A stretch of 64,000 nt of DNA. Origin: Escherichia coli. Its GTDB lineage: Bacteria; Pseudomonadota; Gammaproteobacteria; Enterobacterales; Enterobacteriaceae. A model generated the notes under the pieces. It searched no databases. It saw only the letters and a list, made by a program, of their open reading frames with translations, and was not told where the DNA came from. The stretch lies in the NCBI RefSeq assembly GCF_003334785.1, contig NZ_QOWV01000002.1. The stretch is one strand, 5' to 3'. Shown one piece after another: positions 63,674-63,856 of this stretch; position 1 is the first letter of the stretch, and the number at the start of each line of letters is the position of its first letter. The position numbers and the translations under genes are program-made.

Positions 63674-63856
63674 CAGCCGTTGCCTGATGCGACGCGTAAT
63701 GCGTCTTATCAGGCCTACAGTGAACAGAACCGTAGGTCGGATAAGGCGTTCACGCCGCATCCGACAGCCGTTGCCTGATGCGACGCGTAATGCGTCTTAT
63801 CAGGCCTACAGTGTACAGAACCCCAGGGCGGATATGGCGTTCACGCCGCATCCGAC
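63674..63856. repeat. tandem BIME array (two ~91-bp units, each carrying a pair of REP elements)
   Basis: Unit CAGCCGTTGCCTGATGCGACGCGTAATGCGTCTTATCAGGCCTACAGTG(A/T)ACAGAACC...GGCGTTCACGCCGCATCCGA occurs twice in tandem with a few mismatches. Confidence 0.9.

Follow-up and report, generated by a model that had tools for sequence, protein, structure and literature searches.

A BIME-2-type REP array of strain-variable copy number between trmJ and iscR in Escherichia coli, a probable barrier at the trmJ 3' end and damper of read-through

In Escherichia coli, the spacer between trmJ and the iscRSUA operon can carry a pair of direct repeats, which raises the questions of what kind of element they are, how far their number differs between strains and whether that number could matter to either neighbor. 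We analyzed them in a stretch of 64,000 nucleotides (here, the window) that closes within the trmJ-iscR spacer; the iscR ATG lies 34 nt past the window end, equivalent to window position 64034. The trmJ ORF is identical to RefSeq TrmJ WP_000940019.1, as annotated in the identical RefSeq locus, and suhB lies upstream of trmJ in the divergent orientation. Elsewhere in the window, Rfam matches above threshold were found for 5S rRNA (69-184), AsrC, the antisense of rseC (18419-19250), rncO (22033-22247), ohsC (25660-25736), and GlmY (34916-35063); these locate it on the E. coli chromosome, between an rrn 5S gene at one end and trmJ at the other.

Tandem Repeats Finder returned a single tandem array at 63673-63857 (period of 91, 2.0 copies, 94% matches, 0 indels, and score of 335), and a repeat search of the window found two head-to-tail 91-nt units at 63673-63763 and 63764-63854 with an identity of 95% (Table 1). 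A preliminary description of this DNA had claimed a tandem duplication of ~91 bp after trmJ with a handful of substitutions between the copies, and both statements hold: the units differ by five substitutions, all located at unit positions 51 to 72 (22 nt), where they affect the linker and the second palindrome's foot, and the strings quoted for the difference (AGTGAACAGAACCGTAGG at 63719-63736 versus AGTGTACAGAACCCCAGG at 63810-63827) are exact. In each unit a Z2-type REP is followed, across 13 nt of linker, by a Y-type REP in inverted orientation. In the last of the four palindromes, REP4, the GTAG motif has become CCAG and there is an additional mismatch at the stem foot. REP motifs were far above expectation in the 64-kb window (seven matches versus 0.19 expected, and five versus 0.00), indicating that the array is not a chance match, and the presence of the same two-unit allele in 664 other complete genomes indicates that it is not an assembly artifact of the window either. 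Two ORFs that run across the array (84 aa on the + strand and 46 aa on the - strand) were discounted as side effects of the REPs themselves.

Table 1. Features in and around the trmJ-iscR array and related elements. Positions are those of the window, except in the last row, where they refer to the extracted loci named.
Feature	Position	Strand	Remark
trmJ CDS (tRNA Cm32/Um32 2'-O-methyltransferase)	62933..63673	+	246-aa ORF; TAA at 63671-63673
Repeat unit 1 (type 'a')	63673..63763	+	91 nt
Gap CAGCCGTT between trmJ stop and first paired base of REP1 (G63682)	63674..63681	+	8 nt
REP1, Z2-type, CTAC tail at 3' end	63682..63718	+	33/38 identity to Z2 consensus
Tail-to-tail linker (S-type) of unit 1, AGTGAACAGAACC	63719..63731		13 nt
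REP2, Y-type, inverted; GTAG at 63732-63735 (+ strand)	63732..63765	-	32/35 identity to Y
Repeat unit 2 (type 'b')	63764..63854	+	91 nt; 5 substitutions versus unit 1
Head-to-head linker AGCCGTT, joins unit 1 to unit 2	63766..63772		7 nt
REP3, Z2-type, same sequence as REP1	63773..63809	+	33/38 identity to Z2
Tail-to-tail linker of unit 2, AGTGTACAGAACC	63810..63822		one substitution
REP4, degenerate Y-type, inverted	63823..63856	-	29/35 identity to Y
A-rich spacer between array and iscR promoter block	63857..63900		restricted to E. coli and E. albertii
Two adjacent putative IscR type-1 sites, ATACCCGACTAAATCAGTCAAGTAA and ATAGTTGACCAATTTACTCGGGAAT	63901..63950	+	outside the repeat
Two near-identical BIME-1 elements (Y, ~35-nt linker with AAATTCAATATATTGCA, inverted Z1)	11877-11975, 42043-42141
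Solitary Y REP, inverted	52451-52481
Post-trmJ elements of other genera	L020 1127-1600, L018 1351-1600, L048 1329-1600, L017 1410-1600

The palindromes were typed by alignment to the published Y, Z1, and Z2 consensus sequences (Durrant et al. 2024, PMC11208160). REP1 and REP3 came closest to Z2, ahead of Y or Z1, while REP2 and REP4 came closest to Y, so that the REP-pair (BIME) identity proposed in the preliminary description could be refined to the order Z2, Y, Z2, and degenerate Y, with the 13-nt linker inside each pair. BIME-2 elements are defined as tandem copies, variable in number between strains, of Z2 and Y REPs joined by a short S linker (Ton-Hoang 2012, PMC3333891), and all of this was found here: Z2 and Y REPs alternate in the orientations +,-,+,- around a 13-nt linker, in two copies in the window and one to four among the 5,426 genomes described below. 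Binding of the RAYT transposase (TnpA-REP) requires both the GTAG at the REP foot and a mismatch in the stem (PMC3333891); GTAG/CTAC and the internal mismatch are present in REP1 to REP3, i.e., in three of the four REPs, REP4 having lost the GTAG. As biochemical properties of the class, the literature gives binding or cleavage by DNA gyrase, as well as Pol I binding (PMC3333891), and BIME-2 elements are also introduced there as reported gyrase binding sites (PMC3333891, introduction). The trmJ-iscR feature is a BIME-2-type REP array by every sequence-level criterion of the class, and as such it is an ordinary, already known kind of E. coli intergenic repeat. Both BIME-2 arrays and the polymorphism of their copy number between strains have been described since the 1990s.

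We genotyped the trmJ-iscR spacer across the full set of 5,426 complete E. coli genomes in RefSeq. A flank-only query, made of the two unique flanks and read by the span between them, located both flanks within joining distance in 5,422 genomes, and units were counted with E-value cut-offs that only alignments spanning n units can pass; predicted E-values agreed with those observed (e.g., 4e-96 for one unit). Coverage-based copy counting with full-length repeat queries was rejected, as one genomic unit matches several query units and the coverage of repeat-containing queries reaches 100% in 1-unit genomes. A single unit was present in 2,629 of the 5,426 genomes, and two units, arranged as in the window, in 664. 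At least three were carried by about 678 genomes (exactly three, as in K-12 and B, by about 664 and exactly four by 14), and five or more by none of the 5,426. The remaining major class, with 1,432 genomes, had a non-REP allele, presumably BoxC-like (see below), and ~23 genomes were left without a class call. The 3,313 genomes with one or two units obtained with the full-length query are consistent with these totals, and so is an evenly spaced sample of 59 genomes, in which the span was 597/598 bp (one unit) in 28, 688 bp (two units) in 8, 779 bp (three units) in 6, and 625 bp (non-REP) in 17. Uniform copy number, which together with the lack of a transcriptional effect would have made the repeat neutral in the terms of the preliminary description, is therefore refuted and its expectation of strain variation confirmed, whereas its term "hypervariable" is too strong for a range of one to four units that is constant at three in K-12 and B derivatives. 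The locus is a low-order variable-number tandem repeat, and "polymorphic minisatellite" describes it better.

The arrangements of the units give some idea of how the alleles arose. Writing [a] and [b] for the two unit types of the window, we found [a], [a][b], [a][a][b] (K-12 and AB1157), and [a][hybrid][b] (WG5), as well as the four-unit forms [a][a][a][b] (N61, NCTC9080, and TOP10) and [a][a][b][b] (ETEC1746), while ETEC6335 has a two-unit allele built from unit variants other than a or b. The promoter-proximal unit was the decayed "b" type, with a REP4 that lacks GTAG, in every multi-unit allele seen. The existence of several structures at one length, together with the hybrid unit, points to recurrent unequal exchange or slippage, and the allele pattern as a whole fits repeated unequal recombination or slippage between 91-bp direct repeats; a role of the RAYT transposase is also allowed by in vitro work (PMC3333891). 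The arrangements in WG5, ETEC1746, and ETEC6335 indicate several independent expansion or recombination events. An exact "a" unit occurs in only 73 of the single-unit genomes, most single units being 3 to 10% diverged, and multi-unit alleles thus belong mainly to one haplotype group. Within genomes whose 491 nt of flank are 99.8 to 100% identical, one, two, and three units are intermingled, meaning that changes in copy number outpace substitutions in the flanks. On the shorter scale of laboratory descent, three units have been kept in dozens of K-12 and B derivatives (C600, DH5a, BW25113, MC4100, C41(DE3), B C3029, and others), and no clonal change of copy number was seen among them.

The only exceptions to this constancy are seven assemblies of commercial strains with four units, namely TOP10 (CP080620), XL1-Blue, XL10-Gold, Stbl4, BL21(DE3), BL21-RIPL, and Rosetta2. 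All seven are [a][a][a][b] and come from one submitter under neighboring accessions among CP080620, CP081007-9, CP081489, and CP083273-4, and they are suspect given that other assemblies of the same K-12 and B lineages have three units. They are probably assembly artifacts, the alternative being an unexplained parallel expansion. In the stool isolate P276M (NZ_CP044293.1), the annotation lists both suhB and trmJ as pseudogenes, frameshifted or partial, and the match to the flank breaks off within trmJ; the locus appears to be degraded or rearranged there, or the assembly poor.

The Z2 REPs are also insertion targets for IS621 at the DNA level. The 11-mer target ATCAGGCCTAC lies in each Z2 REP of the window (63708-63718 and 63799-63809), and in strain XH993 (NZ_CP019361.1) a copy of IS621 is inserted in the third unit of the array at ATCAGGCCT^AC (extracted locus 1590-3170). 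The insertion point matches the published natural target of this element, whose recombinase is a bridge-RNA enzyme of the IS110 family (PMC11208160).

The non-REP allele, found in O157:H7, O111, and many other strains and examined in O157:H7 F8797 (extracted locus 1099-1398), has a 122-bp segment with the GC-rich palindrome CCCCTCGCCCCTTCGGGGAGAGGGTTAGGGTGAGGGG in place of the REPs. This segment could not be aligned to the REP unit, and trmJ is one codon shorter next to it, ending in ...NKA-stop rather than ...NKAE-stop. The core of the segment belongs to a dispersed repeat, found at a median of 16 sites per genome, that would fit the 56-bp BoxC family, and we call it BoxC-like. The literature, as far as it gives length and copy number and not the sequence, describes BoxC as 56 bp long with 33 copies in K-12.

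We also compared IscR-anchored loci from 80 species. trmJ lies directly upstream of iscR from the Enterobacterales to Vibrio and Aeromonas, and the spacer between them is usually 80 to 130 bp, with nothing in it but the promoter and the IscR sites; where it is short, the conserved block of IscR sites follows directly on the trmJ stop. A single Z2-Y unit occupies the exact E. coli position in E. albertii, and the insertion must therefore be older than the divergence of these two species. Other elements were seen at this post-trmJ position: three tandem REP-like units in Superficieibacter, two BoxC-like elements in Pseudocitrobacter, a pair of REPs in Escherichia sp. ESNIH1, and in Enterobacter sp. 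Bisph1 a canonical hairpin followed by a T-run, GGGCGGGAAAAACGCCCTTTTT, while many related genera have no insert between trmJ and the IscR sites. Across the genera compared, no conserved sequence was found upstream of the IscR-site block. Together with the unrelated insertions, this describes a permissive, repeatedly colonized 3' UTR, and it also argues against the array belonging to the conserved control region of iscR. With a quarter of E. coli free of REPs at this site and many related genera free of hairpins there, the array is dispensable.

The explanation that we favor, and consider highly probable as a whole, joins the BIME-2 identity shown above to a likely role on RNA that is inferred from other REP arrays, as a barrier at the 3' end of trmJ and a damper of read-through. 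The array would be transcribed as the trmJ 3' UTR, where four stable hairpins could form a barrier to 3'-to-5' exonucleases that defines and stabilizes the end of the trmJ mRNA. The same hairpins would partly damp read-through from trmJ into iscRSUA, in part by a Rho-dependent route. The first of them begins less than 15 nt from the stop codon and may slow the termination of TrmJ translation; at 8 nt, REP1 lies within the <16 nt past the stop codon that defines a stop-proximal REP. More units would mean more barrier and more attenuation, the effect being probably small and copy-number differences close to neutral. We therefore propose that the array gives the trmJ message a structured 3' end and serves as a leaky insulator for the iscRSUA operon downstream, the number of units having at most a modest quantitative effect. 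Dispensability in a quarter of the strains and in many genera likewise argues for a small fitness effect or none.

Much of this proposal is modeled on arrays with measured effects. REP325 stabilizes the mRNA of yjdM, which lies upstream of it, and lowers read-through into yjdN ~8-fold, with partial sensitivity to bicyclomycin and a dominant transcript that ends past four hairpins (bioRxiv 10.64898/2026.03.23.713779), and REP hairpins mark the steady-state 3' ends of Rho-dependent transcripts (PMC6061677). REPs less than 16 nt from a stop codon lower translation (Liang, Rudd & Deutscher 2015, as reported in PMC12306157). REP effects depend on context: for termination by Rho, two to four hairpins are "not always sufficient", and no genome-wide change in mRNA half-lives was attributable to REPs (bioRxiv 10.64898/2026.03.23.713779). 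We found no paper on trmJ 3' ends, on trmJ-to-iscR read-through or on trmJ with iscR/iscRSUA and REPs.

Predicted folds of the trmJ sense strand are in line with stable hairpins, at least for the first three. The energies from REP1 to REP4 were -21.4, -18.8, -21.4, and -14.9 kcal/mol, and the first three hairpins were far beyond the shuffled controls (z of -5.4 for REP1 and -5.1 for REP2), the REP4 hairpin being weaker (z of -1.8); the whole array gave a z of -6.8. In the minimum-free-energy fold of the whole array (window 63660-63900) the four local hairpins are not formed, REP1 and REP3 pairing instead in a long-range duplex of ~33 bp that encloses REP2, and this pairing makes the RNA structure in vivo uncertain. 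Multi-unit arrays may thus have access, according to the folding model, to alternative long-range structures that are impossible for a single unit.

The hairpins could also be read as the intrinsic (Rho-independent) terminator of trmJ, given that four GC-rich hairpins follow right after the stop codon and that there is no other terminator between trmJ and iscR. This is very unlikely, as the terminator scan found no + strand hairpin with a T-run within the array, a U tract is absent after all four hairpins, and the E. coli array is unlike the canonical terminator that Bisph1 has at the same site. We regard as even less plausible that the array encodes an naRNA4-like nucleoid-associated small RNA, which would condense the chromosome together with HU, although Rfam naRNA4 (RF02564) does match 63735..63806 (+) at 72.2 bits, above its gathering score (59.5). 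No other match at the locus reaches threshold (four overlapping ones fall short), and this one runs from REP2 through the 7-nt linker into REP3. For the Y-linker-Z2 unit of REP325, the BIME-2 array from which naRNA4 was defined (PMC4550694), binding of HU and condensation of the nucleoid were reported (Qian 2015, PMC4550694). By that origin the Rfam family amounts to a Y-Z2 REP pair that any BIME-2 junction will match, and the hit restates the BIME-2 class and identifies no gene. Moreover, REP325/naRNA4 was recently found to have no effect on nucleoid volume and no REP-REP contacts, in a study that includes the original senior author (bioRxiv 10.64898/2026.03.23.713779), and a complete Y-Z2 junction is absent from the one-unit and BoxC-type alleles, i.e., from ~75% of genomes. 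Lowest of all we rate the reading as a contingency locus, in which the number of units tunes the iscR promoter through spacing, supercoiling, or gyrase binding. The copy number is polymorphic, gyrase binding is reported for BIME-2 (PMC3333891), and the array ends 45 bp from the block at 63901-63950, conserved in all Enterobacteriaceae spacers examined. From established knowledge of the promoter, we take this block to be the IscR binding sites of iscR. The adjacency to a regulatory region noted in the preliminary description is thus real, but no sign of a role in iscR control was found: three units are clonally stable in many independent K-12 and B derivatives, the range is only one to four, no sequence shared across genera lies upstream of IscR site A, and trmJ ends directly at site A in several genera, from which it follows that the iscR promoter needs no upstream element. 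A promoter scan found no sigma-70-like promoter in or around the array, giving no support to a promoter inside it.

A more serious competitor, which we hold to be quite possible though short of an even chance, is that we are dealing with a repeat that is neutral to selection, selfish, or amplified passively, that has no measurable effect on trmJ or iscRSUA expression, and whose copy number drifts by unequal recombination. The site is dispensable, with another repeat in 1,432 genomes and no insert in many genera, and unrelated repeat families at the same spot in different genera suggest a permissive landing site; the terminal REP4 is decaying, with its GTAG lost and its hairpin weaker, and genome-wide REP effects are weak and variable (bioRxiv 10.64898/2026.03.23.713779). 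Against neutrality, one Z2-Y unit has persisted since before E. coli and E. albertii split, and the Y stem of diverged alleles shows a compensatory change of C-G to T-A, although gene conversion with other REPs as donors could yield the same; comparable arrays, where tested, had measurable effects (bioRxiv 10.64898/2026.03.23.713779). The proposed trmJ 3'-end barrier and read-through damper could be carried further, to a lineage-specific dial in which alleles with 0 (BoxC-like), 2, 4, 6, or 8 hairpins would set the leak from trmJ into iscRSUA and also, by way of the stop-proximal hairpin, the level of TrmJ. We think this improbable. If it were true, leakage into the iscRSUA Fe-S cluster operon would bypass IscR autoregulation, and phylogroups would differ heritably in Isc or TrmJ dosage with promoter and coding sequence unchanged. 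As iscR has its own autoregulated promoter, read-through from trmJ may be irrelevant to Isc expression.

The finding is by itself of little weight, the same array being present with three units in K-12, and its importance to the cell is not apparent from our analysis. What is new is the census of alleles at one locus, with one to four units, the BoxC-like allele, and the IS621 insertion. The locus offers a natural allelic series with which to test the number of REPs against 3' UTR stability and read-through, a relation still debated in 2026, and the spacer length might be used as a simple marker separating major E. coli lineages.

Compared with known elements, the closest relative is the array at the same site in K-12 MG1655 and B, which has the flanks and the sequences of the "a" and "b" units in common with the window; K-12 is [a][a][b] with a 451-bp spacer, and the window, [a][b] with a 360-bp spacer, is short of one "a" unit. 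The NC_000913.3 copy carries no repeat_region feature of any kind over 28 kb and is hence uninformative about annotation of the array. From the BIME-2 family in the Gilson/Bachellier nomenclature there is no essential difference, apart from the degenerate distal Y REP with its GTAG changed to CCAG. BIME-1 (Y-L-Z1 with an IHF site) is also an inverted REP pair in intergenic regions, but it has Z1 instead of Z2 and a conserved L linker of ~35 nt, and it occurs in single copy, never in tandem; of the two in the window, the one at 11877-11975 contains an Rfam ES036 (CssrF) match at 11910-11952. The dedD-cvpA BIME-2 array shares the 91-nt period, with units ~87 to 89% identical to the trmJ-iscR unit, and differs in its locus and its higher copy number, four to eight units in the genomes seen (eight in some strains and four to six in others); in strain RIVM_C036204 it lies at 1501-2221 of the extracted locus. 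REP325 is larger, with 12 hairpins in six units, a longer "l" linker, and "U" spacers, as against four hairpins and a 7-nt head-to-head linker here, and its terminator and stabilizer functions have been measured, whereas the trmJ-iscR array is known here from its sequence. In both, pairs of Y/Z2 hairpins occupy the 3' UTR that separates two genes in tandem, and they are oriented alike with respect to the first of these genes.
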